Origin: Escherichia phage PBECO4 | Sequence record: KC295538 | Direction: 5' to 3' (one strand) | DNA length: 64,000 nt | In this document: piece after piece, positions 44,077 to 57,705 of the stretch | Layout: every line of letters starts with the position of its first letter | Numbering within the stretch: the stretch's first letter is position 1 | Program-made: the position numbers and the translations under genes | Notes under the pieces: generated by a model | Told to the model about the DNA's origin: nothing | What the model saw: only the letters and a program-made list of their open reading frames with translations | Databases searched by the model: none

Positions 44077-44092
44077 TTTTCTTTCCTCTCAG

Positions 44093-44153
44093 TGGGGAGA
44101 ATCATTTCTCCCCTTCATGTAACTTATTATACAGTACTAGATTATCTTGTCAA
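44093..44153 (-). promoter_or_regulatory. PeSL-like promoter + leader hairpin
   Basis: TTGACA-N16-TATAAT then ggggagaaatgattctcccc. Confidence 0.65.
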
Positions 44154-44159
44154 TAGTTT

Positions 44160-44483: not shown

Positions 44484-44510
44484 TTATTGTTATCCTCTAT
44501 TAAATTAATA

Positions 44511-44705: not shown

Positions 44706-44716
44706 TTCCTCTTAGT

Positions 44717-44773
44717 AGGGGAAGATGTTTCCCCTTGATGTAAGTACTATAACACTACTGGATAGTACTGTCA
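44717..44773 (-). promoter_or_regulatory. PeSL-like promoter + leader hairpin
   Basis: TTGACA..TATAGT then ggggaaacatcttcccc. Confidence 0.55.
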
Positions 44774-44780
44774 ATACTTT

Positions 44781-45038
44781 TTATCTCATAGATCTATGCC
44801 AACAATTACGCGGGGGACGTTTAAAAGTACTATCATGATCCTCCTGGCAAGTTATGCAGTACTTACATCCCTTAACGGCCTGGCGTCGTTTCTCAGGGAT
44901 TATATCGCCGCAGTCGAGGCAATGTATCAGTGATTCTATTTGTGCGTTAATTTGCTTTCTAGCGTGGTTAACGGCGGCCTGAATCACTGCGTTAATCTCG
45001 TCTTGTTCGGCCCCATCTTTCGCGAATCCTACAGCCAT
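44781..45038 (-). CDS. TraR/DksA-family C4 zinc-finger protein
   Basis: CLDCGDIIPEKRRQAVKGCKYCITCQ: CxxC-N17-CxxC typical of phage TraR/DksA-like proteins. Confidence 0.6.
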   Translation of the reverse strand: MAVGFAKDGAEQDEINAVIQAAVNHARKQINAQIESLIHCLDCGDIIPEKRRQAVKGCKYCITCQEDHDSTFKRPPRNCWHRSMR

Positions 45039-45242
45039 TATTTTAACCTCATTATAAAAATACTATAGTACTGTAATGCGACAATAATATTACTTGTTCT
45101 TACTTTTTCCAATCCACATGATACCACATATTCATCCCCATATGTGCGGAACGATACACCATGAAAATTTTTATACACTTGCACTACTAATCATAACCTT
45201 TCGTCTAACCAACTGCATAGAATTATACTACTTTACGCAAAT

Positions 45243-45275
45243 TGATCAAGTATTGATCAGATCATTTTTTGATCA
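45243..45275. promoter_or_regulatory. cluster of three TGATCA palindromes (GATC sites) in long leader
   Basis: ttgatcaagtattgatcagatcattttttgatcaa; overlaps TTGATC-N17-TATAAT on minus strand. Confidence 0.45.
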
Positions 45276-45369
45276 ATATTATACAGTTACATTTGTGCAC
45301 CCTATGGGTTAGTGACGTTCTCGTCTTGATGTAAGTATTATGCCAGTACTTGATGATATTGTCAATAGT

Positions 45370-45567
45370 TTATTTTAATTTTTTTCTGTCATTGATTAAT
45401 GCTTTCAGTACTATACTAATGATTTGCAATGATTCATCAATGACTATAAAATTATTCTCTTTCATTAGATGATAGTTACCATTGATTGTATATTCTAAGG
45501 AGTACTGTTTACGTTTAATTTTTGATAATGTTTCTATTTGTTTTTGTACTGATTTCATGCTAATCAT
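45370..45567 (-). CDS. hypothetical protein
   Basis: 65 aa ORF. Confidence 0.5.
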   Translation of the reverse strand: MISMKSVQKQIETLSKIKRKQYSLEYTINGNYHLMKENNFIVIDESLQIISIVLKALINDRKKLK

Positions 45568-45672
45568 TGTTAAACGTCCTGTAACGCATTCTAACGAGAT
45601 AAACGGTTTAGTACTGGCATTGTATAGGGTAATGAATTAAAGCCCACCAGCGTTAACCAGTGGGCTATAATC

Positions 45673-45816
45673 TTACATCTTGCGGATAATCTTAACAGTA
45701 TCTTTCACCGATTTACCGTCTTGCTGGCATTGCTCGATCATTGCGTATTGTTCTGCTGTAAGATCCTCGCCAGTTTTTGCCAGTACTGCGTCGATGAATG
45801 AATCCAGTGCGATCAT
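45673..45816 (-). CDS. small hypothetical protein (47 aa)
   Basis: ATG ORF MIALDSFIDAVLAKTGEDL...; below track cutoff. Confidence 0.4.
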   Translation of the reverse strand: MIALDSFIDAVLAKTGEDLTAEQYAMIEQCQQDGKSVKDTVKIIRKM

Positions 45817-45915
45817 TTTGTTTCTCTCTTAGGTTAAGTTAACTACTGTTTATAAAACTTATTATACAGTACTATCAAACGTTGTCAATATCTTTAATAG
45901 TACTGGTAATATATT

Positions 45916-46158
45916 TTAGCGGTAATCGTCGTATGCTTTATTCACCTGGCGAATGTAACTTTCAAAGGCTTCGTCTACCGTTTCATACTCCCGAACATAA
46001 TCACCATAGGAAACTACATACATACCTTTTTGATCTTCAAACGACATGATGATAGAATCCAGGCCGATGATTTCAGTTTTTGCGATGATAGCCATTTTTA
46101 ATTCCTTAGTAGTGTAGTTGATAAAAGTTATTATGCCAGTACTATCAATCAGTGTCAA
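45916..46158 (-). CDS. hypothetical protein
   Basis: 80 aa ORF. Confidence 0.55.
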   Translation of the reverse strand: MTLIDSTGIITFINYTTKELKMAIIAKTEIIGLDSIIMSFEDQKGMYVVSYGDYVREYETVDEAFESYIRQVNKAYDDYR

Positions 46159-46178
46159 TAGTACTGTGATAATATTTT

Positions 46179-46391
46179 TTAGTTAATAATAGTCAGTGTA
46201 AAATTGTAATCCCCTGCCTGGTATAGTACTTTATCGCCGAACGTTCCAACACGTTTCATATTGCAATAGATACCCATAACACTTTTTACATCTTTGATAT
46301 TCCGAACGCCAGTAATATCCTTGTTTAAATGATCGTGATCAGAAAATAAAACTTGTTTTGCATTTTTCAGTACAGTGCAGATATTAGCCAT
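46179..46391 (-). CDS. hypothetical protein
   Basis: 70 aa ORF. Confidence 0.55.
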   Translation of the reverse strand: MANICTVLKNAKQVLFSDHDHLNKDITGVRNIKDVKSVMGIYCNMKRVGTFGDKVLYQAGDYNFTLTIIN

Positions 46392-46411
46392 TTTGTTTTC
46401 TCTCTGTTAGT

Positions 46412-46471
46412 GGGGAGAATCATTTCTCCCCTTCATGTAACTTATTATACAGTACTATAATCTATTGTCAA
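46412..46471 (-). promoter_or_regulatory. PeSL-like promoter + leader hairpin
   Basis: TTGACA..TATAAT then ggggagaaatgattctcccc. Confidence 0.65.
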
Positions 46472-46485
46472 ACTATTTTTTTATA

Positions 46486-46827
46486 TTATTCGAAATCTTC
46501 TGGACCGGACTGATAATCATCTTCACCGTATGCACTTTCTAACTTCTCGCCAGTGTGATCATCAGTTAGTGAATCATCCTCATAATTCACGTCTACGCCT
46601 ACAATGTAAAACTGGCTATCGTCTGGATCATTGAAATTAATTTTCTGAATGTTTACAATAACTGTATTGATGCCCAGGACACAGCCATCAGCCGTTACAA
46701 AGTACTGATAGTTTTCACAACCGCCTGAATTGAAACCGTAATTGATTTCGGCCCGACCATCATTTAAACGCAGTGCCTGGGCGATGATTTCGTTTTCAAA
46801 GTTAGATTGAGCAATTGAGATAGTCAT
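46486..46827 (-). CDS. hypothetical protein (acidic C-terminus)
   Basis: 113 aa ORF. Confidence 0.6.
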   Translation of the reverse strand: MTISIAQSNFENEIIAQALRLNDGRAEINYGFNSGGCENYQYFVTADGCVLGINTVIVNIQKINFNDPDDSQFYIVGVDVNYEDDSLTDDHTGEKLESAYGEDDYQSGPEDFE

Positions 46828-46847
46828 GATTCGTTTCCTTATTACTA

Positions 46848-46906
46848 GGGGAAACCGTTTCCCCTTTCGATGTAAAACATTATACGCTTATTGAGATAGT
46901 TTGCAA
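46848..46906 (-). promoter_or_regulatory. PeSL-like promoter + leader hairpin
   Basis: TTGCAA-N16-TATAAT then ggggaaacggtttcccc. Confidence 0.6.
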
Positions 46907-46960
46907 GTACTTTTTATCAAATACTTTAAAATAGTTTTCAGTACTCAAACATTATACAAT

Positions 46961-47050
46961 AGATACACTCCTGCACCCTGTGGGCTAGTGAGCTATCTCT
47001 CAATGATTATATAATAACAAAATGGCTGACCGAAGTCAACCACTTTTTTC
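46961..47050 (+). repeat. terminator-bearing repeat, copy 4 (variant)
   Basis: TACAAT-agatacactcctgcaccctgtgggct...tggctgaccgaagtcaacca + T6. Confidence 0.45.
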
Positions 47051-47052
47051 AT

Positions 47053-47187
47053 TTATTTTTTAGCTTTAAGTACTGCGGCCTTTCGTGTCATGCCTTGCTT
47101 GATGTATTCCTGTACTTTCGCTTTACGTGCTTTAGCTTTATCTGCTTTAGTTTTAGGAGTACTGTAAACTATACCGTTAGGATTCAT
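47053..47187 (-). CDS. small lysine-rich hypothetical protein (44 aa)
   Basis: ATG ORF MNPNGIVYSTPKTKADKAKARKAK... Confidence 0.35.
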   Translation of the reverse strand: MNPNGIVYSTPKTKADKAKARKAKVQEYIKQGMTRKAAVLKAKK

Positions 47188-47273
47188 TTAAATCACCATA
47201 AAGAATAGATAGGTTACTAACAACGCCGCGATCAATGCACCGACCAGGGCCGAACTGTAATAAGCTAAGGATC

Positions 47274-47426
47274 TCATTTTTTAGCCTGAAAATAATGTTT
47301 AATTTGTGCGGCGGTCAGTGCACAATTACGCAGGAAGTTTTCTGTATAACTGCGGCGAGTATTAAAAGAGAATTGACCTTTACCGTTACCGATAGTTACA
47401 TCCATCCGAGCGTTGTATTGTTTCAT
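47274..47426 (-). CDS. hypothetical protein
   Basis: Start moved to ATG at 47426 (MKQYNARMDV...) after leader hairpin. Confidence 0.5.
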   Translation of the reverse strand: MKQYNARMDVTIGNGKGQFSFNTRRSYTENFLRNCALTAAQIKHYFQAKK

Positions 47427-47444
47427 TTTGTATCTCCTGTTATC

Positions 47445-47504
47445 GGGGAGAATCATTTCTCCCCTTCATGTAAAACATTATACAGTACTAAAAACTAATT
47501 GCAA
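47445..47504 (-). promoter_or_regulatory. PeSL-like promoter + leader hairpin
   Basis: TTGCAA-N17-TATAAT then ggggagaaatgattctcccc. Confidence 0.65.
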
Positions 47505-47507
47505 GTA

Positions 47508-47750
47508 TTATTTTAAACTTTGTGCGACTAATTTCGCACGGTCAATCATATACTGCCATTTTTGGATCTCTTCTGGCAGAAAACGATATTCACCAATAAC
47601 AATAGTGATACACTTTTCAGCTTGGTCAATGTATGTAGTATCAATCTCGACTTGAACGGGTACACGTTCGCCGTATTCAGTCCCTGGGATAATGCAATCA
47701 TTATCATAAGTTACAGTAGTAGTAGTGTCTTTGATTAAAATTGTTTCCAT
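47508..47750 (-). CDS. hypothetical protein
   Basis: 80 aa ORF. Confidence 0.55.
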   Translation of the reverse strand: METILIKDTTTTVTYDNDCIIPGTEYGERVPVQVEIDTTYIDQAEKCITIVIGEYRFLPEEIQKWQYMIDRAKLVAQSLK

Positions 47751-47774
47751 TATACTTTCCTCGTTAGGTGTAAG

Positions 47775-47828
47775 GGGAACGTTTTCCCCTTCATGTAAAA
47801 CATTATACAGTACTGAAAACTAATTGCA
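47775..47828 (-). promoter_or_regulatory. PeSL-like promoter + leader hairpin
   Basis: TTGCAA..TATAAT then ggggaaaacgttcccc. Confidence 0.6.
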
Positions 47829-48029
47829 AGTACTTTCCGAAAGTAAATGCTCATACGCTGCATTAACTACATTTTCAATAACCGACTGTACAGAAAGATC
47901 CCCCACGTCCTGGCTATAGTAGAAATTGCTTACAGTGGTGTCATCGTATGCAAATACTTTACCAGGTACTGCATCAATCACATACATATTAACCTTTAAG
48001 ATGTCGATCTTATCCTGTACAGTAAGCAT
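47820..48029 (-). CDS. hypothetical protein
   Basis: 69 aa ORF. Confidence 0.55.
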   Translation of the reverse strand: MLTVQDKIDILKVNMYVIDAVPGKVFAYDDTTVSNFYYSQDVGDLSVQSVIENVVNAAYEHLLSESTCN

Positions 48030-48034
48030 ATTAA

Positions 48035-48307
48035 TTAACCTTTTAAGTACTGGCTTAAGTAGTCTTTTTGATCTTCGGTGATTGCAGTCATCTTCCCTAG
48101 TACTGGATTGATGATATAATCCCCTGTAACGTCCTGTAACGCATTCTCAGGCGGTTTAACGGCTGGGGTAGCCATAGCCATTGCCTGGACTTGTTCGACG
48201 CTGTAACGCTCATAAAGGCGGCATTCTTCCGGTGTTAACATAGCATCAGTACGCTTCATCGGTTTAATGATGCTTTCGATCTCATTCAGTACTTGATTAA
48301 CGTTCAT
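48035..48307 (-). CDS. hypothetical protein
   Basis: 90 aa ORF. Confidence 0.55.
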   Translation of the reverse strand: MNVNQVLNEIESIIKPMKRTDAMLTPEECRLYERYSVEQVQAMAMATPAVKPPENALQDVTGDYIINPVLGKMTAITEDQKDYLSQYLKG

Positions 48308-48358
48308 GGTATAATCCCCAATATAAGCGGCCTAAATCGACCGCTAACGATGTTTTGA

Positions 48359-48628
48359 TTAATAGGTGTAAGGTTGACGCTCAAACAATGATTGTACGCT
48401 GTACGCCCCGCTAATGGGCTTCGCTGGCAAATCAATTTTATATTGTTCACGCTTAAAGATAATAAAACGGCAATTGTTTTTAACATCAAAATTGATTGAA
48501 CGTTCCAGGAGTTTTCCATCGTGCACAAATACAAGATAACCGCTTGGTACTTGTTTTGTAGAACTGGTTGCAACCATAGACCGACGAACATGTGTACCTG
48601 CATCGATTAAAGTACTGATATTTTTCAT
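48359..48628 (-). CDS. hypothetical protein
   Basis: 89 aa ORF; GAGGA SD; preferred over overlapping alternative frame. Confidence 0.55.
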   Translation of the reverse strand: MKNISTLIDAGTHVRRSMVATSSTKQVPSGYLVFVHDGKLLERSINFDVKNNCRFIIFKREQYKIDLPAKPISGAYSVQSLFERQPYTY

Positions 48629-48708
48629 TTTACTATCCTCTTAAGTTGATTTAATTTCTTTCCCCTATGCAGACACTGTATCAAAGTATCTGCATAAAGT
48701 AAAGCTAA

Positions 48709-49032
48709 TTAAAGATCTTTTTTACGTTTTACATCCTGTACAGTACAATGCAACGGGATAGACAAATCATTACACAAACGAGTAAGGGAGGTTTCAACAG
48801 TATCAAGCCCGTCTACTGATTCCTTTAAGAGATCAAACGCCGTTTGTTGATATGCATCTTCATAGCCATAAGTAAATGATTCAACCGCCAGATCATTCAA
48901 ACCGTTATCCAGTTCAACGCTTACATGACAAGAATGATAAGTATTGCCATATGAATCAGTCCAACGTTTACCGTCAACATTGATTGCATGGATTGCAGCC
49001 AGGGAAACGGTATTGATGATAGTTTTAGCCAT
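48709..49032 (-). CDS. hypothetical protein (paralog of 41939..42262)
   Basis: 107 aa; shared RWTDSYGNTYHSCHVS and DVKRKKD. Confidence 0.65.
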   Translation of the reverse strand: MAKTIINTVSLAAIHAINVDGKRWTDSYGNTYHSCHVSVELDNGLNDLAVESFTYGYEDAYQQTAFDLLKESVDGLDTVETSLTRLCNDLSIPLHCTVQDVKRKKDL

Positions 49033-49123
49033 TTTAGTATTCCTTAAATTAATATGTGTCGTCTTGATAAAATCTATTATGCCAGTACTATCAAACTATG
49101 TCAATAGTACTGTGATAATATTT

Positions 49124-49336
49124 TTACTTACTTTCTTTCGCTGCTTTATATGTTGCCACTGCCATAACCACATCAGCACGAACAAAGTTTTTAACCGTGT
49201 CACTGTAATAATTGATCGCATCATCTATATCTGCGAACGTCCGATACATACCGCACCAAGATACTTTATAACCTTCTTTCACTTCTGCCAGTTTAACGAT
49301 AGTCTTGTTAACTTTGATTTTAGTAATGATAGCCAT
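49124..49336 (-). CDS. hypothetical protein
   Basis: Start moved to ATG at 49336 (MAIITKIKV...). Confidence 0.55.
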   Translation of the reverse strand: MAIITKIKVNKTIVKLAEVKEGYKVSWCGMYRTFADIDDAINYYSDTVKNFVRADVVMAVATYKAAKESK

Positions 49337-49355
49337 TTTAGTTTCCTCATTATCA

Positions 49356-49414
49356 GGGAGAACCATTTCTCCCCTTGATGTAATGTATTATACTTTATTC
49401 GATTTACTTTGCAA
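49356..49414 (-). promoter_or_regulatory. PeSL-like promoter + leader hairpin
   Basis: TTGCAA..TATAAT then ggggagaaatggttctccc. Confidence 0.6.
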
Positions 49415-49423
49415 GTACTTTTT

Positions 49424-49651
49424 TTAATTTAATTCATCCAGGCAAAGGATACGCTCAACGCCCAAATCAGTTAAACTAATCGACGGCACTTGATAGGTTT
49501 CAATGTATGCTACACTTGCCCACTGACCGAACTCATTAACGGCCCAGGTATTCATTGCATTTTGCAATTCCGCACCTGCCTTGTTAGTAATGACTGCAAC
49601 TACTTGTTCGTTGCCAGTAGTACCAGATACGCGAGTAATGATAATAGCCAT
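49424..49651 (-). CDS. hypothetical protein
   Basis: Start moved to ATG at 49651 (MAIIITRVSG...). Confidence 0.55.
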   Translation of the reverse strand: MAIIITRVSGTTGNEQVVAVITNKAGAELQNAMNTWAVNEFGQWASVAYIETYQVPSISLTDLGVERILCLDELN

Positions 49652-49674
49652 TGTTTTGATTCCTTTGATTTGGA

Positions 49675-49734
49675 AGGAGAACCGTTTCCCCCTCTCGATG
49701 TAAAACATTATACGCTAATCTCTTAATCGTGCAA
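49675..49734 (-). promoter_or_regulatory. PeSL-like promoter + leader hairpin
   Basis: promoter then gagggggaaacggttctcc hairpin. Confidence 0.6.
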
Positions 49735-49893
49735 GTACTTTTTATTACTTTTTGCAAAATACTTTAAACGCTCTCAATCGCATTCTAACGACCTTAACGC
49801 CACCAGCTAGGGCGATGTATCAGATAATCAGTTTAATGCGTTAGAATCGATTCTAGGCGGTGCTGGTGGACTGGAATACTACAGACACAAAAA

Positions 49894-49915
49894 AGCCCAC
49901 TGTTTAAGGTGGGCT
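49894..49915 (-). terminator. intrinsic terminator
   Basis: agcccaccttaaacagtgggct + T6 on minus strand; identical copy at 50628-50649. Confidence 0.65.
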
Positions 49916-49936
49916 AGTGATTCAGTACTTTAATTG

Positions 49937-50434
49937 TTATGCTTCAACTTTGCGATGAGCTTCGATCCATTCCTCGCGAGTCATACCGCTTTCTTTGATA
50001 GCGTCCAGTACTACCGCAATGCAGTTACCGCGTACAGGAATCATATGTTCTTCCCCGTTATCAAGTACTACAGTAACACGTTCTTGAATCCATTTTTTAG
50101 GTTTAGATTCTGGCTTATCTTCACCATACTTAACCGCCAGGGCTTTATGTGCCATTTCTACAACTACTTCCAGATCCAATCCAGCCACCGCCGCCTGGAT
50201 ACTTTCGATTGTTGCTTGCAGTTCGGCTTCACGGGCTTTTTTCTGTTCTTCCAGTTCTGCTACCTTTTTGGCTTGCAGTTCTTTAGCTTCACTGTACGCA
50301 ATGTTAAAATTGTTGCGTACTGCTTTCATGGTATCGTTATCCAGGTCAGCCAACAATTCAGCAGCAATAACAGTATCGTTTGAAATCAGTGCTTTCAGGA
50401 ATGATTTTACATTAGCCATTTTATAAATCCTCAA
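49937..50434 (-). CDS. hypothetical protein (predicted coiled-coil, basic C-terminal region)
   Basis: 165 aa ORF; heptad-like AELEEQKKAREAELQATIESIQ. Confidence 0.6.
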   Translation of the reverse strand: MRIYKMANVKSFLKALISNDTVIAAELLADLDNDTMKAVRNNFNIAYSEAKELQAKKVAELEEQKKAREAELQATIESIQAAVAGLDLEVVVEMAHKALAVKYGEDKPESKPKKWIQERVTVVLDNGEEHMIPVRGNCIAVVLDAIKESGMTREEWIEAHRKVEA

Positions 50435-50454
50435 TTAAAGTTTAGTTTACGTTT

Positions 50455-50555
50455 ATTAGTGTATCAAAGTTTTATCGACGTGTCCAGTTTTTCGTTCGAC
50501 TTACTGGCGGTCTACTTAGTGCTCCCCGTCTTGATGTAATACATTCTACGCCTTT
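50455..50555 (-). promoter_or_regulatory. long conserved 5'-leader element (copy 2, variant)
   Basis: gtccagtttttcgttcgacttactggcggtctacttagtgctccccgtcttgatgtaatacattctac. Confidence 0.4.
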
Positions 50556-50627
50556 TTGTGGTAATGTCAACTACTATTTTAAAACTATTTTTAAAGTATG
50601 CAGTACTACGATAATACAAAAACAAAA

Positions 50628-50649
50628 AAGCCCACTGTTTAAGGTGGGC
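50628..50649 (-). terminator. intrinsic terminator
   Basis: same hairpin + T-run as 49894-49915. Confidence 0.65.
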
Positions 50650-50667
50650 TAGTGATTCAGTACTATA

Positions 50668-50967
50668 TTATAAACAGTTAATTACTCCGGTGTGCGTTAC
50701 TTTCTCAGTATCCATAACCGTGACCGATCCACGCTTAGTACTTACATCGTAATAAATTGTCGTGCTACCTTTTTCGTCTTCTTCATGGAACGGGCCGCTT
50801 TTAAATGCTTCTGGCTGGATCTCTAAATCCTTTAAAACAATCTCGCCAGTACTTTCATCTGTCATCGCAACAGTGCACTGAATGAATTTTTCACTACTTA
50901 CATCTAACGACGCATTAACAGCGAAAGAGGAAACAGATAAAGCCAGGGCGATGATTGCAATTTTCAT
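50668..50967 (-). CDS. exported small protein (signal peptide)
   Basis: MKIAIIALALSVSSFAVNA / SLD: hydrophobic core with AxA-type cleavage motif. Confidence 0.6.
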   Translation of the reverse strand: MKIAIIALALSVSSFAVNASLDVSSEKFIQCTVAMTDESTGEIVLKDLEIQPEAFKSGPFHEEDEKGSTTIYYDVSTKRGSVTVMDTEKVTHTGVINCL

Positions 50968-50987
50968 TTGATTATCCTTAGTTACCA

Positions 50988-51046
50988 GGGGGAACCGCTC
51001 CCCCGTGCGATGTAAAATATTGTACAGTACTAAAAACTAATTGCAA
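50988..51046 (-). promoter_or_regulatory. PeSL-like promoter + leader hairpin
   Basis: TTGCAA..TACAAT then gggggagcggttccccc. Confidence 0.6.
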
Positions 51047-51051
51047 GTACT

Positions 51052-51288
51052 TTATGATTTTTTATAAAACATTTCGGCAGTAATATTTTTACCCGTTGGT
51101 TGTACTTTATCCAGAATTTTTTGATGCCCTGGCCGTCCAAATGAATATGATCCGTAAACCGTAAACCAGTAGTTACCCTCAGTGTTTACATGTACAGCAC
51201 AATAGGGAACGCCCCGCGATTCATCACCAATAAAGTGTGATACCGTTCCCGTTACATTAGCAGACGTTGATTTGATTTGTTCAAGCAT
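51052..51288 (-). CDS. hypothetical protein
   Basis: 78 aa ORF. Confidence 0.55.
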   Translation of the reverse strand: MLEQIKSTSANVTGTVSHFIGDESRGVPYCAVHVNTEGNYWFTVYGSYSFGRPGHQKILDKVQPTGKNITAEMFYKKS

Positions 51289-51309
51289 TTTCTTATTCCT
51301 TAGTTACCA

Positions 51310-51363
51310 GGGGGAACCGCTCCCCCTATGCAAAACATTATACGCGTTTAAAAACTAATAGCA
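51310..51363 (-). promoter_or_regulatory. PeSL-like promoter + leader hairpin
   Basis: promoter then gggggagcggttccccc. Confidence 0.55.
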
Positions 51364-51397
51364 AGTATTTTAATAAAAAGTATTTGAAAAATAATTG

Positions 51398-51426
51398 TTG
51401 ACAACTGCATCCAGTACTGGCATAAT
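51398..51426 (+). promoter_or_regulatory. plus-strand sigma70-like promoter (antisense to flanking genes)
   Basis: TTGACA-N17-CATAAT, reading into ..ctaacccaccgggtgc.. element. Confidence 0.5.
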
Positions 51427-51506
51427 TACTACATCAAGACGAAACAGTCACTAACCCACCGGGTGCCGAGATCCGTCTATTAAATGATTCAGTACTTAAC
51501 AATAAA

Positions 51507-51524
51507 GGGGATCAATCGATCCCC
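51507..51524 (-). terminator. intrinsic terminator
   Basis: ggggatcaatcgatcccc perfect palindrome + T-run on minus strand. Confidence 0.55.
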
Positions 51525-51530
51525 TATGTA

Positions 51531-51752
51531 TTACTTAGTAAGGTATAAACAGAAGTCACCTTTATTTGCTACGCCGCCAGTGTAACGCGATGAATAGTTA
51601 GAAACGTCCTGGACTTCTGCTATTACCAGTGTATCATCATTCAATTCGTCGCAGAAGCAAACGGCTGGATCTTTTACGCCGATCTTGTCGGCATGTTCCC
51701 GCATAGATTTAACCAGTGCTTCCAGTTGAGAAAGAGTAGTGATATTAGCCAT
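51531..51752 (-). CDS. hypothetical protein
   Basis: Start moved to ATG at 51752 (MANITTL...). Confidence 0.55.
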   Translation of the reverse strand: MANITTLSQLEALVKSMREHADKIGVKDPAVCFCDELNDDTLVIAEVQDVSNYSSRYTGGVANKGDFCLYLTK

Positions 51753-51771
51753 TGTATTTTCCTCATTACCA

Positions 51772-51830
51772 GGGAGAACCATTTCTCCCCTCTATGTAAA
51801 CTATTATACAGTACTGAAAACTAATTGCAA
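51772..51830 (-). promoter_or_regulatory. PeSL-like promoter + leader hairpin
   Basis: TTGCAA-N16-TATAAT then ggggagaaatggttctccc. Confidence 0.65.
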
Positions 51831-51836
51831 GTACTT

Positions 51837-52025
51837 TTAATTAAATTCCATAAAATCATTCTCAACGTGCACAACAATTTGATTGTTTTTAAAGTCCGCA
51901 GCGAACTCGATGCAATCATAAACCGCTTTTTGTGTTACAATGCTATGAGTACCAATCGGATTAATAGGGGATTGAATTGTTTCAATCTCGTTCCCTTGCT
52001 CATTAACAATTAAAATATTAAACAT
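51837..52025 (-). CDS. hypothetical protein
   Basis: 62 aa ORF. Confidence 0.5.
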   Translation of the reverse strand: MFNILIVNEQGNEIETIQSPINPIGTHSIVTQKAVYDCIEFAADFKNNQIVVHVENDFMEFN

Positions 52026-52081
52026 CGCTGTTACTCCTGGGTAGTGTTAACTCGATATAAAGTATTATACGCCTTTATTGC

Positions 52082-52288
52082 TTAGTGTCCAGTACTTTTT
52101 AAAACATATTCATAAACACTACGCACATCATTGATCATCGCCTGGCGGTTAGCAGGTAACGCACCAGGATCGCCACTATCCCAGGCATTGATAAAACTCC
52201 CCAAATCATGAAAGATTTTATTCTGTAAGCCGATTAACTGCAATTCTTTTTCTTCAAGCTCTTTGATACGGTCAATTAAAAGACTCAT
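52082..52288 (-). CDS. hypothetical protein
   Basis: Start moved to ATG at 52288 (MSLLIDRIKE...); GAGGAttatctaATG context shared with next gene. Confidence 0.55.
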   Translation of the reverse strand: MSLLIDRIKELEEKELQLIGLQNKIFHDLGSFINAWDSGDPGALPANRQAMINDVRSVYEYVLKSTGH

Positions 52289-52305
52289 TAGATAATCCTC
52301 AGTAC

Positions 52306-52593
52306 TTAATTGTAAGATCCGCAACGGTTACAATAGTGCCCGTCTTCCTCGTCATCGTCAACGAATTGACCGACGAAATTATCTACTTTCTCTTTGAGAT
52401 TCTGATAATTGTTTTCAACTTCCTTTAGACGTTCCTGGTAGTATTCCAGGGCTTGCACATACGCCGCCTCAGCCGTTTTCGCTCTTAAGGCTAAATTCAT
52501 GCCACGCGTTTCATCGTACATCCAAAAGCCATCGGTGCACTCACTGATTGACAATGATTTGGTTAACACTTTATAGTCAATTACTTTGCTCAT
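52306..52593 (-). CDS. hypothetical protein
   Basis: Start moved to ATG at 52593 (MSKVIDYKV...) after ggcgggtgtggttcccgcc hairpin. Confidence 0.55.
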   Translation of the reverse strand: MSKVIDYKVLTKSLSISECTDGFWMYDETRGMNLALRAKTAEAAYVQALEYYQERLKEVENNYQNLKEKVDNFVGQFVDDDEEDGHYCNRCGSYN

Positions 52594-52649
52594 TAGATAA
52601 TCCTCAGTAAAGGCGGGAACCACACCCGCCATTGATTCAGTACTGAATG

Positions 52650-52889
52650 TTACATTCCAACCATTGCAGCACGGATCGCCGTAGTGCTATACTTGAATCC
52701 GTCCGGTGTTGTAGTAGTACCGTTGGCTTTTAATCTGCGGTACATACATTGGGCCGCAATATCTTTAGTTTTACATTGTGCGATGCAACTTTGAGCAAGC
52801 CGATATAATGACTCACCGTTATTAATCCACAATGAAACATTCCAATGAGTTTTGTTTTTGTGCCCGTTGTAAGTTTTAGTAGTAGCCAT
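52650..52889 (-). CDS. hypothetical protein (paralog of 54698..54937)
   Basis: 79 aa; shared GHKNKTHWNVSLWINN and TPDGFKYSTTAIRAAMVGM. Confidence 0.65.
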   Translation of the reverse strand: MATTKTYNGHKNKTHWNVSLWINNGESLYRLAQSCIAQCKTKDIAAQCMYRRLKANGTTTTPDGFKYSTTAIRAAMVGM

Positions 52890-52911
52890 TTTTAAATCCT
52901 CGTTTAATTGA

Positions 52912-52973
52912 GCGGGAGAACCATTCCCCCGCCTCGATATAAAGTATTATACGCTTTTAAACTTAGTTTGCAA
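52912..52973 (-). promoter_or_regulatory. PeSL-like promoter + leader hairpin
   Basis: TTGCAA..TATAAT then gcgggggaatggttctcccgc. Confidence 0.65.
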
Positions 52974-52985
52974 GTACTTTTTAAA

Positions 52986-53597
52986 TTAATATGCGATTGA
53001 TTCTACTACGTCATCAATAACATTGAATTGATACTCGTTACCCTCGATCAGTGCCGTGATGTTCTCAGTAGTGAATTGATCCTCATATGCATTCTCTAAA
53101 TCACGGTACAACTTGCGGGACAATTCACGAATAGTATCAGTGAGTAGTTCCTCAAGCTCATTAACTAACGTTTCTTGTTTTGCGGTTAAATCAGTGTAAG
53201 CCGATTCAATGTACCCGCTTACAGTATTCTCATGCGAGTAGTGGGAGTGCGAACGCTTTACACTCATCGCCAAATCATCTTCATTCAGCAAGTGACGGAT
53301 TGAGCGATACTTAGTTAATGCTCTTACCTTGCGTAAAAACTTCACTGCGTCAACGTGGTCAGTACTGATTGATGCACCGTCACCCTGGGACCAAAAACCA
53401 CTGAATTGTATTTCAGCTTCATTAATGCCATATTCCGGTAGTACTGTTTCTTTATAGTATTCAATTTCACTTTCAGAAAAATAATTGTCGTTTGAGTTTT
53501 TTTCACGTTCCCGAACCAGTTCGATAGCTGACGTTTGTTGTTCTGCGTTCAATTCAGAAAAATCCATAACGAAAGTAGTAGTAGTGATAGTTTTCAT
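52986..53597 (-). CDS. hypothetical protein
   Basis: 203 aa ORF; largest gene of cassette region. Confidence 0.6.
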   Translation of the reverse strand: MKTITTTTFVMDFSELNAEQQTSAIELVREREKNSNDNYFSESEIEYYKETVLPEYGINEAEIQFSGFWSQGDGASISTDHVDAVKFLRKVRALTKYRSIRHLLNEDDLAMSVKRSHSHYSHENTVSGYIESAYTDLTAKQETLVNELEELLTDTIRELSRKLYRDLENAYEDQFTTENITALIEGNEYQFNVIDDVVESIAY

Positions 53598-53652
53598 TTT
53601 GTAACCCTCATTCAGTAGTTGATGTAAGTATTATACGCTTTTAAAAACATTT

Positions 53653-53760
53653 GTCAAACTATTTTATCAGGGGAGTTTTTCGTGTGCCTTACTCCTGGGC
53701 TACTTAACGGGAAGTTACTTATTTCGTTCCCCGTCCTGATGTAAAACATTATACGCCTTT
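53653..53760 (-). promoter_or_regulatory. long conserved 5'-leader element (copy 3) with tandem promoters
   Basis: near-identical to 42962-43060; second TTGACA..TATAAT promoter closer to the ATG. Confidence 0.5.
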
Positions 53761-53818
53761 AAACATAGTTTGCAAGTACTTTTTAAAAATAGTTTTCAGT
53801 ACTGAATATTAAAAAAGT

Positions 53819-53847
53819 ATTGACAGCATTATCAAGTACTGGCATAA
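53819..53847 (+). promoter_or_regulatory. plus-strand sigma70-like promoter
   Basis: TTGACA-N17-CATAAT; convergent with a minus-strand TTGACT..CATAAT promoter ~100 bp away. Confidence 0.5.
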
Positions 53848-54022
53848 TATACCACATGACAACAGCTAACCCACCGGGTGCACAATTGTAACTATACTAA
53901 ACTAATTTTTCTATAGATACACTCCCGCACCCTATGGGCTACGGCTTATCTGCCAATGAATACATTATGCCAGTACTGACAAAATAAGTCAATACCGGCA
54001 ATTGTAAAGATTTGTAAACTAC

Positions 54023-54253
54023 TTATACTGCAATCGCGTCCAGGCTATAATAATAATAAGTGCCGTATTGGTGTACTTTATTACCTTTTATTTCAGTACT
54101 GAATGAATCCGAACGATTTGCATATGATGTTAATTTAAAGTACTTTGATTTGCTGATACGTTGCCATACACCACAGATCCGCTGTAAGTAAGTAGTTTTA
54201 TTCGTGGTAGTATCTTTTACGGTTTTAACTTCAGTCATATACATATTAGTCAT
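54023..54253 (-). CDS. hypothetical protein
   Basis: 76 aa ORF. Confidence 0.55.
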   Translation of the reverse strand: MTNMYMTEVKTVKDTTTNKTTYLQRICGVWQRISKSKYFKLTSYANRSDSFSTEIKGNKVHQYGTYYYYSLDAIAV

Positions 54254-54273
54254 TTTTATTACTCCAGGTTATA

Positions 54274-54333
54274 GGCGGGAAGAGTTCCCGCTCTCGATGT
54301 AAAACATTATACGCCTTTAAACATAGTTTGCAA
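54274..54333 (-). promoter_or_regulatory. PeSL-like promoter + leader hairpin
   Basis: TTGCAA..TATAAT then gcgggaactcttcccgcc. Confidence 0.65.
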
Positions 54334-54340
54334 GTACTTT

Positions 54341-54607
54341 TTATTCAAGTACTGCAATCTTTTTAGTACGGTACACGGTCACGCGGTTGCCCTTTCGGTC
54401 GAGCTTTATTTCTACCACTCGACGCGATACACTATCGGGACTTTTTAAGGCCGCTAACCAGTACTGTAATGATCTGGCTGTACTACGCTTTACAATGGCC
54501 CAACGTTTACCACGTTCCGATTGTACGCCCATATCTTTAAACGTTGCCCCGTCCTGGCGTGCGGCGATCCGAGCTTGTTCACGCGTCGCAAAATACTTAA
54601 TATTCAT
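54341..54607 (-). CDS. hypothetical protein (paralog of 41448..41843)
   Basis: Start moved to ATG at 54607 (MNIKYFATREQ...). Confidence 0.65.
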   Translation of the reverse strand: MNIKYFATREQARIAARQDGATFKDMGVQSERGKRWAIVKRSTARSLQYWLAALKSPDSVSRRVVEIKLDRKGNRVTVYRTKKIAVLE

Positions 54608-54697
54608 GCTGTTGCCCTTATCGTTGGTGTATGAATAAAACACTATTATAAAGTACTATCGCAAAAAATGATAGTACTTTAAATAAATTCTATTCTA

Positions 54698-54937
54698 TTA
54701 CATTCCAACCATCGCCGCACGGATCGCAGTAGTGCTATACTTAAAGCCGTCCGGTGTTTTATCTTGTCCAGTCTGTTCTAAAAATAGCATCATATGACGG
54801 GCCGCATCATTACGATTAGTATTGGCGGCAATAAAGTCCTGGGCCAACCGATACAATCCCTCATCGTTATTAATCCAAAGGCTTACATTCCAATGAGTTT
54901 TGTTTTTGTGACCTAAGAACATTTTTGATTTAGCCAT
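54698..54937 (-). CDS. hypothetical protein (paralog of 52650..52889)
   Basis: Start moved to ATG at 54937 (MAKSKMFLGHKNK...). Confidence 0.65.
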   Translation of the reverse strand: MAKSKMFLGHKNKTHWNVSLWINNDEGLYRLAQDFIAANTNRNDAARHMMLFLEQTGQDKTPDGFKYSTTAIRAAMVGM

Positions 54938-54957
54938 TTTTTTAATCCTCTTATATA

Positions 54958-55016
54958 GTGGGGAACTATTCCCCACCTGATGTAAAGTATTATACGCTTT
55001 TAAATTTAGTTTGCAA
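54958..55016 (-). promoter_or_regulatory. PeSL-like promoter + leader hairpin
   Basis: TTGCAA..TATAAT then gtggggaatagttccccac. Confidence 0.65.
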
Positions 55017-55019
55017 GTA

Positions 55020-55253
55020 CTATTTTTTCAGTACTGGTAAACCTTTGATCTCACCTGGCTGTACTTCCTCAAAGGCGACCGCCATCATACGGCTATCATC
55101 TTCCTTACATTCTTCCATCGCATCACAAAAATGATTAATAACGTCCGGTGCAACGTCAACCACATCAAACAAGCCAACCTCAGTGCAACGGCTTAAAGCG
55201 TTTAATAGGTCAGTCAGTGCAACGGATTGAGAAACAGTTAAAATAGTACTCAT
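55020..55253 (-). CDS. hypothetical protein
   Basis: 77 aa ORF. Confidence 0.55.
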   Translation of the reverse strand: MSTILTVSQSVALTDLLNALSRCTEVGLFDVVDVAPDVINHFCDAMEECKEDDSRMMAVAFEEVQPGEIKGLPVLKK

Positions 55254-55273
55254 ACAATTAATCTCTTAATTAT

Positions 55274-55333
55274 AGTGGGGAACTATTCCCCACCTGATGT
55301 AAAACATTATACGCTTTTAAACTTAGTTTGCAA
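55274..55333 (-). promoter_or_regulatory. PeSL-like promoter + leader hairpin
   Basis: same hairpin sequence as 54958-54976. Confidence 0.65.
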
Positions 55334-55347
55334 GTACTTTATTAAAC

Positions 55348-55710
55348 TTATTTGTAAATTTTGCCACTGTCAGCCCATACCAGGAAACGAGGCATATTAT
55401 CCCATGCATCTTGTTTTAAATTTAAACCGTGCAATTCCTCAGTAGTTGCCATCCCTGGTACTGGCTTACTACACACCGCGAAATTTTCGCCCATATACTG
55501 ATAAACCATCGTCAAATCATTTGAGATCATCTTATGGATCATCGCATCAAGCATCACGGTAGCGGCGTATTGTTCACGCTTAAGCGGCAGCATTTTAATC
55601 AGTTCGCGGTATGCGTCAATGTGAGTTTTAACCGTTGCCGCCGGAAGATCTTTCATCTCGTCGCGGAAGTTAACCAGGTTAGCAATAATTTTGGTGATTT
55701 GAGTTGCCAT
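55348..55710 (-). CDS. hypothetical protein
   Basis: Start moved to ATG at 55710 (MATQITKII...). Confidence 0.6.
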   Translation of the reverse strand: MATQITKIIANLVNFRDEMKDLPAATVKTHIDAYRELIKMLPLKREQYAATVMLDAMIHKMISNDLTMVYQYMGENFAVCSKPVPGMATTEELHGLNLKQDAWDNMPRFLVWADSGKIYK

Positions 55711-55733
55711 CGTTTTAATCTCTCTTAAAGTGT

Positions 55734-55793
55734 AGCGGGAACACTTCCCGCTCTCGATGTAAAACATTATACGCTTTTATCAGTACGGTGCAA
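55734..55793 (-). promoter_or_regulatory. PeSL-like promoter + leader hairpin
   Basis: promoter then agcgggaagtgttcccgct. Confidence 0.6.
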
Positions 55794-55825
55794 GTACTTT
55801 CTACAAATACTTTTAAAATAGTTTT

Positions 55826-55917
55826 CTTTCTATATAGGAGTACTATTATTCAGTACTGAATCAATCCAGGGGAACTATCTTTCTATATAGGAGTACTATT
55901 ATTCAGTACTGAATCAA
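55826..55917. repeat. tandem direct repeat (2 x ~40 bp)
   Basis: ctttctatataggagtactattattcagtactgaatcaa twice, 13-bp spacer. Confidence 0.7.
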
Positions 55918-56069
55918 CCAAATCACTACTACACCCCATAAAACGGCCTCAGACGCATTCTAACGCATTAATACACCTAAGCTATACATTTGCACCACTC
56001 CCAACAATCCAGGGCGTTACGGGCCGTTTAAACGCGTTAAATTATTTTCAATTATTTTGTTTTTAGGTA

Positions 56070-56097
56070 TTGACTTGATCCTGAAAAAGCGTATAAT
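56070..56097 (+). promoter_or_regulatory. plus-strand sigma70-like promoter
   Basis: TTGACT-N16-TATAAT in ORF-free region. Confidence 0.5.
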
Positions 56098-56284
56098 TAC
56101 TACATAGACGCGAGAAAGCGGAAACCCCAGAGGGTGCGGAATTACGCCCAAAATTCAAGATATAAAAAAAGGATACACTCCCGCACCCTAGCAGGTAAAC
56201 GCACTTTCTCAGTACTGAATTATAGTACCATAGTCCGGCCCAGGATGGCAAGCAAATTAATTAAAACTTTTTTCATCCAGGGTA

Positions 56285-56312
56285 TTGCTTTATTTTTCCA
56301 GTACTGTATAAT
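56285..56312 (+). promoter_or_regulatory. plus-strand sigma70-like promoter
   Basis: TTGCTT-N16-TATAAT. Confidence 0.45.
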
Positions 56313-56409
56313 AGTTCCATCAAGTCGAGAAAGACTCAAGCCCACCGGGTGCATAGTTACGCCCAAAATTCAGTACTGAAAAAATTTTTAAAAATATCCG
56401 TCCAGGCCG

Positions 56410-56438
56410 TTGACATTGCCCCCAGTTTATAAGATAAT
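56410..56438 (+). promoter_or_regulatory. plus-strand sigma70-like promoter
   Basis: TTGACA-N17-GATAAT upstream of iteron-like array. Confidence 0.5.
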
Positions 56439-56534
56439 GATTCCAGATTCAGAAAAATCTAACTCCAGATACTGCGGGGAAACTATCCCCACGCGGTAGG
56501 GGAACTATTGGAAAAAACAAAATAAAATTTTGAT

Positions 56535-56655
56535 TTAGCCGTCTATACTTCCAGACGTGTAACCATCTAGCCGTTTAGCCGTCCAAACGTCTAGCCATCC
56601 AGCCATCCAGAAATCTAGCCGTTTAGCCGTCTAGATGGATAGCCATCTTTACTTC
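56535..56655. repeat. iteron-like direct repeat array (TAGCCGTY / AGCCATC units)
   Basis: ttagccgtc, ctagccgtttagccgtc (twice), ctagccatccagccatccag, agatggatagccatc within ~120 bp. Confidence 0.65.
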
Positions 56656-57048
56656 CAGACTTCTGGAGGGCTAGACATATCTACGTCCAAAATCCACCCA
56701 GGGTAACTACGCCCAAAATCCGTCAGTACTATACCATAGATCTATCTTTTGAAAGGGAGTATTCAGTACTGCCACAATAGCCCTCACTATGTTACCCTAG
56801 GAGGATGAAGACTATCATGTAGTACTGAATACTGTTAGAGGGAATCCACCAGCTTGTGCTGGTGGCATAATGCTTTAGATTAAAATCAGTACTGACACCA
56901 TTCTGTTAATATCAGTACTGTTATTACGATTTTCATATGAGGTTCAAAAAGATGTACCACCACAGGAGGAACTATCTTTTCTGTACTGTCTCACGACAGG
57001 AGGTAGAGTAAATGAATTGTTCGCAGCAACTCATCACCCTATGTAGAA

Positions 57049-57077
57049 CATTATACAGTACTGAATCATAATGTCAA
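57049..57077 (-). promoter_or_regulatory. minus-strand sigma70-like promoter reading into ORF-free region
   Basis: TTGACA-N17-TATAAT on minus strand; no ORF downstream for >1 kb. Confidence 0.5.
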
Positions 57078-57705
57078 TAGCTTTCTTTCATTATTCAGTA
57101 CTGATATTCTTGAGAACTACCCGACTACAAACATCATTATATCCCACAAATCATAAACGTCCCAACGTAAATTTCAACTTTCGAAGATCCAACTTTTATT
57201 TCATAGGTACTCCAAAATTTTTAGGATCGAGATTTAGGATGGAGTACTAACCAACTTTTTGCTGGAGCCTCAAGGGGTAATGGAATTTTACCCCGAAGGG
57301 TAAAGGGGTAATTGAAATTAAGGTGAAAGTAATAATTCAGTACTAATCATTGCGTGATTACTTTTGATTACATTTGATGTAATTTGAAAAATGGAAAAGG
57401 AGCTTGGAAACTACAAAGTACGGCAGACTTCCTCTGCCTACTTAGTGGCATATCAGTACTGAATCCTTCCCGTGCATTCTTGAGCATTCTTGTCTATACT
57501 AATCAGTACTGAATCATATATAATCATTCTGTGATTCTACGGTGCTCATATAAATGTTTATATATGATTACTTATGACTACCTATGATTACGGGGTTTAG
57601 CCTGGGGAGAATCCTAGTGATCGCATTTGTCCAGGCTGAATTTTAACAATTCGCCTGTACATAAAGGTTGTTCACTAGGAGCTTCCCCTGTCTACTTGTG
57701 TTTAA

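Follow-up and report, generated by a model that had tools for sequence, protein, structure and literature searches.

An untranslated region at the chromosome end of Escherichia phage PBECO4, a probable cis-acting end region of a long direct terminal repeat

The 64,000-nucleotide stretch of DNA analysed here (the window; record KC295538, with position 1 as its first letter) comes from Escherichia phage PBECO4, and its sequence matches place it in Asteriusvirus, among the 121Q/G17-like phages with a genome of ~350 kb. Between the minus-strand open reading frames (ORFs) at 55348-55767 and 57706-57897 lies a region without ORFs (55768..57705), which is probably an untranslated, cis-acting end region of a long direct terminal repeat (DTR), where the cut site of the chromosome, early promoters, and sites for the recruitment of host factors would be combined. 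Evidently, the region contains the site at which cutting of concatemers produces the right chromosome end, and the left repeat copy has its inner edge at the same place. The original prediction, in which most of the described features are indeed present at or near where they were placed, had proposed a replication origin, a packaging site, or a non-coding RNA locus. Its packaging option is supported by a chromosome end at 57442/57443, inside the region, whose cut context is kept in four genera. Its RNA option is possible, and its R-loop or iteron origin found no support.

The DTR was mapped from the ends of the G17 record to 36467..57442 of the window (20,976 bp). Bases 1-20668 of G17 are identical to its last 20668 bp (100%, free of gaps) and correspond to window positions 36467-57442. 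Because the DTR ends at 57442, the ORF-free region consists of the last 1,675 bp of the repeat and 263 bp of unique DNA outside it. A record end at the exact base equivalent to 57442 is found in nine records (G17, CRJP21, ELP-22, E9.1, fEgEco12, vB_Ec-M-J, BF17, WPEC3, and WPEC5), the eight besides G17 being from other laboratories and starting or ending at this base. The junction at these record ends is ...GGCAGACTTCCTCTGCCTACT/TAGTGGCAT... (in junctions, the slash marks the cut), and in records that hold both copies of the repeat (366-384 kb) the region is located 18-22 kb from one genome end. Also, a DTR is annotated in the vB_Ec-M-J and Muenster records, in the latter at 1..20030 from PhageTerm. 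This agrees with the ~20 kb of terminal redundancy reported for G17 from coverage (PMC6563267) and with the terminal repeat of 20,668 bp obtained for Sharanji by PhageTerm (PMC11895373).

Both boundaries of the repeat can be read at the level of single bases. The left junction (36456..36472) is CGAAGTCGCTA/AGGTTA, with the cut at 36466/36467, where base 1 of G17 maps; in the outward direction from the repeat, the sequence is CT/TAGCGACTTC, and the left junction of Muenster shows the same AAGTGCTA/AG context. At the other boundary, a terminal hairpin with the cut site (57417..57448; AGUAC-GGCAGA-CUUCC-UCUGCC-UACU) marks the physical right end, which is the inner DTR boundary, at 57442/57443. 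The hairpin is formed by the last 26 nt of the chromosome (z = -3.6), and the cut context is GACTTC (57426-57431)-N11/TAGTGG (57443-57448). In outward reading, CT/TAG is present at both DTR boundaries, in the window and in Muenster. Moreover, the cut-site context is common to Asteriusvirus, Alcyoneusvirus, Mimasvirus, and Eneladusvirus: RAAGTC occupies nt 12-17 from the end in all four genera, and the collapsed records of RaK2 and GAP32 have TAGTGG after the junction, the same as the window. Because the sequence on both sides of the junction is kept across genera, there is strong independent evidence for a specific cutting site.

That this region has no credible ORF, as had been claimed, holds for the whole of 55768-57705. 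Its longest internal ORFs (81, 62, and 59 aa), and likewise all seven longest, have no PHROG match; the 81-aa ORF is broken by a 1-nt indel frameshift in nine of nine relatives compared, and the ATG of the 59-aa ORF is lost in four of the nine, which makes hidden coding capacity unlikely. Zero genes are annotated in the region in the curated records G17, CRJP21, fEgEco12, vB_Ec-M-J, and BF17. Auto-annotated records (OR699183, OR699282, PP886230, PV611058, and others) fill the corresponding gene-free stretch with 5-13 "hypothetical protein" coding sequences, which are in all likelihood spurious, a point of relevance for annotation since several GenBank records contain them. Also, neither tRNA nor tmRNA was found across the window by an ARAGORN-type scan, and a search of the window against Rfam gave nothing at gathering scores, only a chance-level scaRNA match (E = 0.15).

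The gene-free sequence is itself well preserved. A segment of 2.1 kb around the region finds matches in 42 phage records, with a full-length identity of 90-98% to the Asteriusvirus jumbo coliphages (121Q, phAPEC6, G17, Sharanji, and SP27; ~350 kb), and in 33 Asteriusvirus records the region is kept at 83-99% identity over 92-100% of its length. Beyond this genus, sensitive searches and direct reading of the sequences were applied to Muenster and RaK2 (Klebsiella, Alcyoneusvirus), BF (Serratia, Eneladusvirus), and XbC2, Kaldavass, and GAP32 (Mimasvirus). The records of Muenster, BF, and XbC2 open with a gene-free stretch of 1.3-1.8 kb, and in RaK2, GAP32, and Kaldavass, where records are collapsed or differently started, the same gene-poor stretch is internal. 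In all of them the order of elements is shared: a promoter (P1) is followed by a ~120-nt palindrome with a stem of AGGGTGCGG and CCGCACCCT, two further promoters (P2 and P3), the block GCGG.AGGGGAACTAATGGAAAA, an array of short repeats, an AGTACT-rich stretch, an inward promoter of the form TTGAC(A/G)-17-TAnnAT at ~270-400 bp from the end, the motif TAGGATCGAGATTTAGGAT.GAGTACT, and the end itself. Judged from these sequences, the architecture of the region is deeply conserved across the four jumbo-phage genera. A 1.1-kb "insertion" seen in some BLAST alignments was discarded as an artefact, in which a paralogous promoter match had been joined in.

The three plus-strand promoters and the minus-strand promoter of the original prediction are all present. 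P1 (56070..56097, plus strand; TTGACT-16-TATAAT, 11/12 consensus) is directed toward the chromosome end and is found also in XbC2, Kaldavass, GAP32, BF, RaK2, and Muenster. P2 (56285..56312, plus strand; TTGCTT-16-TATAAT) has CAGTACTG in its spacer, and the sequence after it is paralogous to the 5' half of the P1 module. P3 (56410..56438, plus strand; TTGACA-17-GATAAT, 11/12) reads into the 8-bp array described below, the block GCGG.AGGGGAACTAATGGAAAA being conserved between the two. The inward promoter (57050..57077, read from 57077 to 57050 on the minus strand; TTGACA-16-TATAAT) has a perfect 12/12 consensus, lies ~365 bp from the chromosome end, and is directed toward the DTR genes, with counterparts ~270-400 bp from the end in RaK2/Muenster, XbC2, BF, and GAP32. 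The total of promoter-like sites in the region is not above that of shuffled sequences (14 vs 13.2), and the top sigma-70 matches (12/12 and 11/12) are kept in position across genera. For PA5oct, a distant member of the clade, it was reported that many DTR genes are highly transcribed early and that the phage depends on the host RNA polymerase (PMC7318152).

Just 3' of P1, an imperfect palindrome of 122 nt (56104..56225; stem of AGGGUGCGG and CCGCACCCU together with GAGAAA and UUUCUC) constitutes the best cross-genus block of the region, with 88% identity to XbC2 over 77 nt. Fold prediction gives z = -4.2 for the plus and -5.05 for the minus strand, and in an alignment fold of eight sequences a compensatory change is seen in 7 of the 16 pairs. 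A promoter-like site on the minus strand (56222..56251; TTGCCA-18-TACTAT, overlapping TATAAT) converges on the palindrome, and a terminator-like hairpin of the same strand (56189-56170) is located downstream of it. This raises the alternative that the main function of the region is the production of small non-coding RNAs, transcribed from P1-P3 and the convergent promoter on the minus strand, for which the module of promoter and hairpin kept across genera with some compensatory changes, the strong folding z-scores, the terminator-like hairpin, and the abundant non-coding RNAs in the DTR of PA5oct (PMC7318152) can be adduced. Nonetheless, no Rfam family matches, the core of the stem is invariant with a small covariation term (-0.48 kcal/mol), and the element is also a DNA palindrome, which a cruciform or a site for a dimeric protein explains equally well. 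The palindrome is then not decisive as proof of an RNA, and it may act as an RNA hairpin, as a cruciform, or by binding a dimer. Since such RNAs would cover only ~300 of the 1,940 bp as well, we regard them as quite improbable as the main function. In the Serratia phage BF, a second module of P1-type promoter and palindrome is present in the opposite orientation at 3683-3822, 3.7 kb from the record start; therefore, the P1-type module is a dispersed repeat in at least one genus. Among the hairpins of the original prediction, CCACCAGCttgtGCTGGTGG is borne out (z = -3.1) and the other two are weak (z = -1.35 and -1.5).

The most distinctive element of the region is an array of 8-bp boxes of the form AG(C/A)C(G/A)TCT (56537..56680), already noticed as iteron-like, for which TRF gives a period of 8 and 12.4 copies at 56536-56634, the register being maintained to about 56680. 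Read one base over, the units are AGCCGTCT, AGACGTGT, AAACGTCT, and AGCCATCT, and they abut head to tail with CTAG junctions. The operator of the methionine repressor MetJ has the consensus AGACGTCT in tandem abutting boxes, in agreement with the matrix in PMC3228920. The metbox rule of Augustus and Spicer 2011 (PMC3228920) requires at least two adjacent 8-bp boxes, each with at least one-quarter of the consensus bits, and a total of at least the consensus. With the published half-metbox matrix, 14 consecutive in-register boxes pass at 56537-56648, with 102.8 bits vs 12.58 for the consensus, and two more boxes are found at 56657 and 56673. Shuffling the window 200 times gave runs of at most 3 boxes and totals of at most 21.3 bits.

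Arrays of the same boxes are found in BF, XbC2, and GAP32, in T5-like Demerecviridae (pVp-1 with 9 boxes, AhSzq-1 with 28, Chester, many other Vibrio phages, and PSTCR5), and in T7-like Autographiviridae (PGT2, phiKT, and KPV811). The array of the T5-like phages lies directly beside DnaA boxes and a ACTGTATA..TATACAGT palindrome, which are counterparts of the inverted repeats in the injection stop region (iss) of T5, and in PGT2 it lies inside a DTR of 260 bp, 38 nt from the end. The 84 matching phage records have hosts in Enterobacterales, Vibrionales, and Aeromonadales, save one labelled Xanthomonas, and these three orders are among the five gamma-proteobacterial orders to which MetJ is limited (PMC3228920). 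The sole exception to this pattern, the "Xanthomonas" phage XbC2 (OP292654.1), shares 91% identity with the Erwinia phage Kaldavass (PQ464595.1) across the terminal 1.7 kb, and its genus, Mimasvirus, also includes the Cronobacter phage GAP32. There is no methionine gene near the array.

The content of the array slot differs between genera, with metboxes in Asteriusvirus, Eneladusvirus, and Mimasvirus and AAATGAGAATCATTATCATT repeats in RaK2 (1780-2110) and Muenster (780-1100). The latter agree with the Fur box (consensus GATAATGATAATCATTATC) in 14-16 of its 19 positions, and RaK2 has 5 Fur-box-like sites vs 0.12 in shuffles. They are the same as "direct repeat C" and palindromes E-I of T5 (T5 9194-10409), which also match at 14-16 of 19 positions. 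Moreover, the iss regions of T5-like phages carry a LexA-type palindrome, CTGT-N8-ACAG, beside DnaA boxes (palindrome D of T5: TACTGTATAAATATACAGTA). The region itself has no Fur-like box (at least 14 of 19 positions) and no LexA-type CTGT-N8-ACAG, and no DnaA box (TTWTNCACA) is present on either strand of 55800-57700. The preprint on the T5 region makes no mention of LexA, Fur, MetJ, or Chi (bioRxiv 10.1101/866236).

Another element of the end region is a hairpin at 56846..56865 that is made of two inverted Chi sites (CCACCAGC-ttgt-GCTGGTGG) and that G17 annotates as a terminator. Its plus-strand Chi (56858-56865), at a distance of 577 bp from the right end, has the orientation that acts on RecBCD entering there. 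The 64-kb window has 10 Chi sites (GCTGGTGG; 37828-56865) vs 0.36 expected; their flanks are unrelated, and none lies outside the DTR. RecBCD entering at the 36467 end would meet eight of them in the active orientation, and from the 57442 end two, of which the one in the hairpin is the nearer. In G17, all 10 of 10 Chi sites are in the DTR, and in RaK2 this is the case for 9 of 10 in a 40-kb sample, both with the same polarity and at non-homologous positions. This pattern suggests that the 36467 end is exposed, possibly as the first-entering end, or that Chi drives recombination between the repeat copies.

Taken together, these elements can be arranged in a single explanation, in which the region encodes no product and would be DNA that is acted upon. 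It would bear the outermost promoters for host RNA polymerase of an early host-takeover repeat, the inward one, ~365 bp from the end, driving transcription toward ~48 small leftward genes and the three outward ones running into the conserved hairpin and the 8-bp array. The array, with its 14-16 boxes, would load a long filament of MetJ, dependent on S-adenosylmethionine (SAM), and the Chi hairpin would provide the only suitably oriented Chi for stopping RecBCD near the right end, with eight further Chi sites guarding the left end. The role of the protein-loaded array would most likely be related to the end: it may help terminase to find or process the boundary, as IHF does at lambda cosB, and/or it may halt DNA passage or transcription there, in the manner proposed for the injection stop of T5. 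The candidates for its function are then an aid to terminase at the boundary, an iss-like block, and the titration of MetJ.

Several observations weigh against this explanation. For the boundary, a DTR of only 8,298 bp was reported for the relative UE-S1 by PhageTerm on a Nextera library (PMC12805682), and some of the record ends that coincide at 57442 may have been copied from earlier records, not measured. The UE-S1 record is arranged differently, not around the 57442 boundary, and clashes with the ~20.7-kb DTR of the other isolates; its value is probably a method artefact and is treated as an outlier. For the promoters, function is deduced from their consensus. For the array, MetJ would bind a putative operator in which position 3 is C in 56% of 117 phage boxes vs 10% of natural metboxes, making the boxes directional, and in which the perfect AGACGTCT occurs in 1 of the 117, so a different protein with a related preference could read it. 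The other positions of the phage boxes are A1 in 97%, G2 in 74%, C4 in 92%, T6 in 94%, C7 in 85%, and T8 in 75%. Also, a terminase recognition site would be expected closer to the cut than the 760-900 bp that separate the array from it, and Alcyoneusvirus lacks a metbox array altogether. Finally, no proteins like A1/A2 or dmp of T5 were detected in the DTR ORFs (the 10 largest by PHROG and 48 by Pfam), a search whose sensitivity is limited for small proteins.

An alternative to host MetJ is a phage-encoded reader, such as a small terminase subunit or a ribbon-helix-helix (RHH) protein, the array being then of pac type and its likeness to metboxes convergent. The directional boxes that are almost never a perfect MetJ palindrome favour this alternative, as do the location of arrays in or near terminal repeats in three families and the presence in T7 of other short-repeat arrays, different from these, next to the terminal repeat. 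On the other hand, three unrelated families would each need a protein of the same specificity, and such a protein does not emerge from the searches: tblastn of Escherichia coli MetJ against 50,697 phage records found no phage-encoded homologue, only three mis-filed bacterial sequences, and no RHH, Arc, or MetJ domain is present among the 48 DTR ORFs according to Pfam. Moreover, the host range of the array-bearing phages fits the MetJ-bearing orders, and RaK2 has Fur-like boxes instead at the array slot. A phage-encoded reader is thus a serious contender that we nevertheless consider unlikely.

If MetJ is the reader, the position of the array at the end could be incidental, and the array would act as a decoy that titrates MetJ as the phage DNA multiplies, derepressing methionine and SAM synthesis in the host; the Fur-like and DnaA boxes would act alike in other phages. 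The number of boxes speaks for this, with 16 per repeat copy and 32 per genome against the 2-5 of natural MetJ operators, and so does the interchange at one slot of arrays for different host regulators. However, titration leaves unexplained the steady placement of the arrays in or beside the terminal repeats of three families, and we give it little credence as the principal role.

The explanation as an end region also has to be compared with a replication origin, of R-loop type or bound at iterons, which was the reading favoured at the outset. Strong convergent promoters flank the array, short A/T tracts are present at 56379-56398 and 56510-56535, and the sign of the GC skew changes from negative to positive at ~57.0-57.4 kb. 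Nonetheless, the premise of an AT-rich region was wrong, as its GC content is 37-44%, above the 30-35% or so of the DNA flanking the repeat. This holds for the DTR in general (38-40% GC vs 30-35% in the flanks), with the same compositional pattern in RaK2 (35.9% vs 30.6% and 28.2%). The skew was dropped as an origin signal, since the flip falls at the DTR edge, where the gene family also changes while the strand stays the same: genes are on the minus strand on both sides, and at 57706-61756 there are ~20 tandem, tightly packed ORFs of ~60 aa, alike in size, which look like a paralogous family with a C-rich coding strand. In addition, DnaA boxes are absent, and the units of the array are abutting 8-mers that fit a repressor operator, not spaced initiator sites of 17-22 bp. 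The equivalent region of T5 was argued to be unlikely to serve in replication, the T5 origins being near the genome centre (bioRxiv 10.1101/866236). An origin here is therefore unsupported, and we consider it very improbable.

With regard to the genes that the end region would serve, the DTR contains about 48 small ones, all on the minus strand, and the region is upstream of all of them. Pfam searches of the 48 DTR ORFs (36619-55767) found one DksA/TraR zinc finger, one ParE-like toxin domain, two DUF7249, and one DUF7247, the remaining ORFs belonging to no Pfam family. The DksA/TraR match corresponds to the type of RNA-polymerase-binding factor expected in a host-takeover module. The ten largest ORFs match PHROGs of unknown function only, plus one weak secondary match to DNA ligase.

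The region also contains other repeats. Two exact direct repeats of 40 nt (55825-55864 and 55878-55917, plus strand) stand 53 bp apart, each with AGTACT and TCAGTACTGA, and confirm the 2 x 40-bp tandem repeat that had been described. From adjacent BLAST blocks, G17 is ~35 bp shorter here (about 19125-19130), which fits a single copy, and the repeat is probably a copy-number polymorphism. The TGATTAC direct repeats are present too, as 10-bp repeats at 57355..57388 (plus strand), 54-87 bp inside the terminus, and as a second set at 57555..57588 (plus strand), 113-146 bp outside it. A sub-terminal block (57201..57267) that contains TAGGATCGAGATTTAGGATGGAGTACT is 82-84% identical to XbC2 and Kaldavass over 67-68 nt.

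The palindrome TCAGTACTGA, for which about 15 copies had been counted in the region, occurs there in 8 exact copies, along with 12 of CAGTACTG and 18 of AGTACT. It is not confined to the region, since the whole window has 19 exact copies vs 0.12 expected and 258 AGTACT vs about 21 expected (12-fold), the latter being nearly absent at 22-28 kb and 32-36 kb. AGTACT is followed 1-2 nt on by a -10-like hexamer ~7 times more often than expected and is abundant also in RaK2, GAP32, BF, and XbC2. A protein site specific to the region was rejected on this basis; because AGTACT and the -10-like hexamers are found together window-wide, TCAGTACTGA is best read as a family-wide promoter-spacer or operator element. 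The same AGTACT core is present in the SlmA site GTGAGTACTCAC. The recognition of TCAGTACTGA as a genome-wide motif, of the hairpin as a double Chi site, and of the terminal-repeat context are the points that go beyond the original prediction.

The DTR itself is already known from database entries. A search of the literature found no description of the anatomy of the region, of MetJ-type arrays in three families, or of polar Chi clusters in the DTRs of jumbo phages. In phages with long terminal repeats, the definition, protection, and delivery of the chromosome ends are poorly understood, and the region offers a handle across families: a conserved cut context, a fixed order of elements in four genera, and an array consistent with the operator of one particular, dispensable host protein. 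Three unrelated families (RaK2-like jumbo myoviruses, T5-like Demerecviridae, and T7-like Autographiviridae) place arrays of MetJ-type boxes in or beside their terminal repeats. A broader idea, which we put forward tentatively and hold to be somewhat short of an even chance, is that the boundary of the repeat would be a landing pad for host DNA-binding proteins that control the chromosome end, some lineages having Fur-like, LexA-like, or DnaA boxes at the same slot. Control of the end would here mean packaging, entry or pausing of the DNA, or end protection, the injection stop of T5 being included, and the polar Chi clusters across the DTR would belong to the same end-management system. If host repressors are indeed recruited to phage ends, this would be a new host-factor dependence and could tie infection to the SAM or iron state of the cell.

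In comparison with known systems, the region would work like Repeat Region 3 of T5 and the left-end control region of T7, although the DnaA boxes and the A1/A2 proteins that go with the T5 iss were not found here. Repeat Region 3 is an untranslated region of 1.2 kb with repeats and palindromes, mostly in the left repeat with an overrun of 270 bp, and upstream of leftward genes (bioRxiv 10.1101/866236). In both phages a kilobase-scale, gene-free region of repeats and palindromes straddles the inner end of the left repeat, with an overrun of 263 bp in the case reported here, and lies upstream of leftward early genes; moreover, in T5-like phages of Vibrio and Aeromonas the same 8-bp array is within the iss-type region. 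The differences are the paired DnaA boxes and the LexA-type palindrome, present in T5 and absent from this region, and the array, since T5 itself has Fur-like repeats and no metbox array.

This likeness is the basis for another alternative, an injection stop of T5 type, in which the left end would enter first, transfer would pause at the region while host proteins on the array hold or block the DNA, the small DTR genes would be expressed, and the rest would then enter. It overlaps the explanation as an end region. The layout and the overrun (263 vs 270 bp) match, Demerecviridae have the 8-bp array too, next to their palindromes with DnaA boxes, Fur-like repeats are present both in T5 and in RaK2/Muenster, and the polarity of Chi would defend the left end. 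However, the region has no DnaA box, the DTR ORFs include no detected homologue of A1, A2, or dmp, two-step transfer has never been reported for this clade, and the array of the T7-like PGT2 lies 38 nt from the end, where a stop would be senseless. For T5 the iss is itself mechanistically unresolved (bioRxiv 10.1101/866236). We judge an injection stop improbable and retain the cis-acting end region as the reading to be compared with the remaining systems.

The left end of T7 resembles this end region in being a gene-free chromosome end (925 bp in T7), in having strong host promoters directed inward a few hundred base pairs from the end and one directed outward (A0 and A1-A3 in T7), and in having arrays of short repeats beside the terminal repeat. 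These promoters have a known role in DNA entry. The terminal repeat of T7, at 160 bp, is far shorter than the 21-kb DTR. The T7 arrays were considered as metboxes and rejected, their unit being CCTAAAG with no metbox run.

Regarding the array, the likeness to MetJ operators consists of abutting 8-bp boxes with CTAG junctions, every box being above the published threshold. Natural MetJ operators have 2-5 boxes; the array differs from them in its 14-16 boxes (28 in AhSzq-1), in not being at a methionine gene, and in preferring C at position 3.

The Chi sites have their closest parallel in phage P1, where most of 50 Chi sites are in or near the terminal repeats and their clusters were proposed to drive RecBCD-dependent recombination and protection (PMC12315714). 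In both cases, many Chi sites cluster in the terminal redundancy of the linear virion DNA. P1 is a headful-packaging phage, whereas PBECO4 belongs to virulent jumbo phages with exact DTRs and, unlike P1, has a strong Chi polarity, with 8-9 vs 1-2 sites toward one end.

Finally, lambda provides a precedent for a host factor at a packaging end: cosB contains a site for IHF, which assists terminase, as a single bend site adjoining the cut. Here, the candidate element is a long array ~0.8 kb from the cut and not a single site at the cut, yet in both phages a site for a host DNA-binding protein, predicted in the case of PBECO4, would be built into the region of the packaging end.

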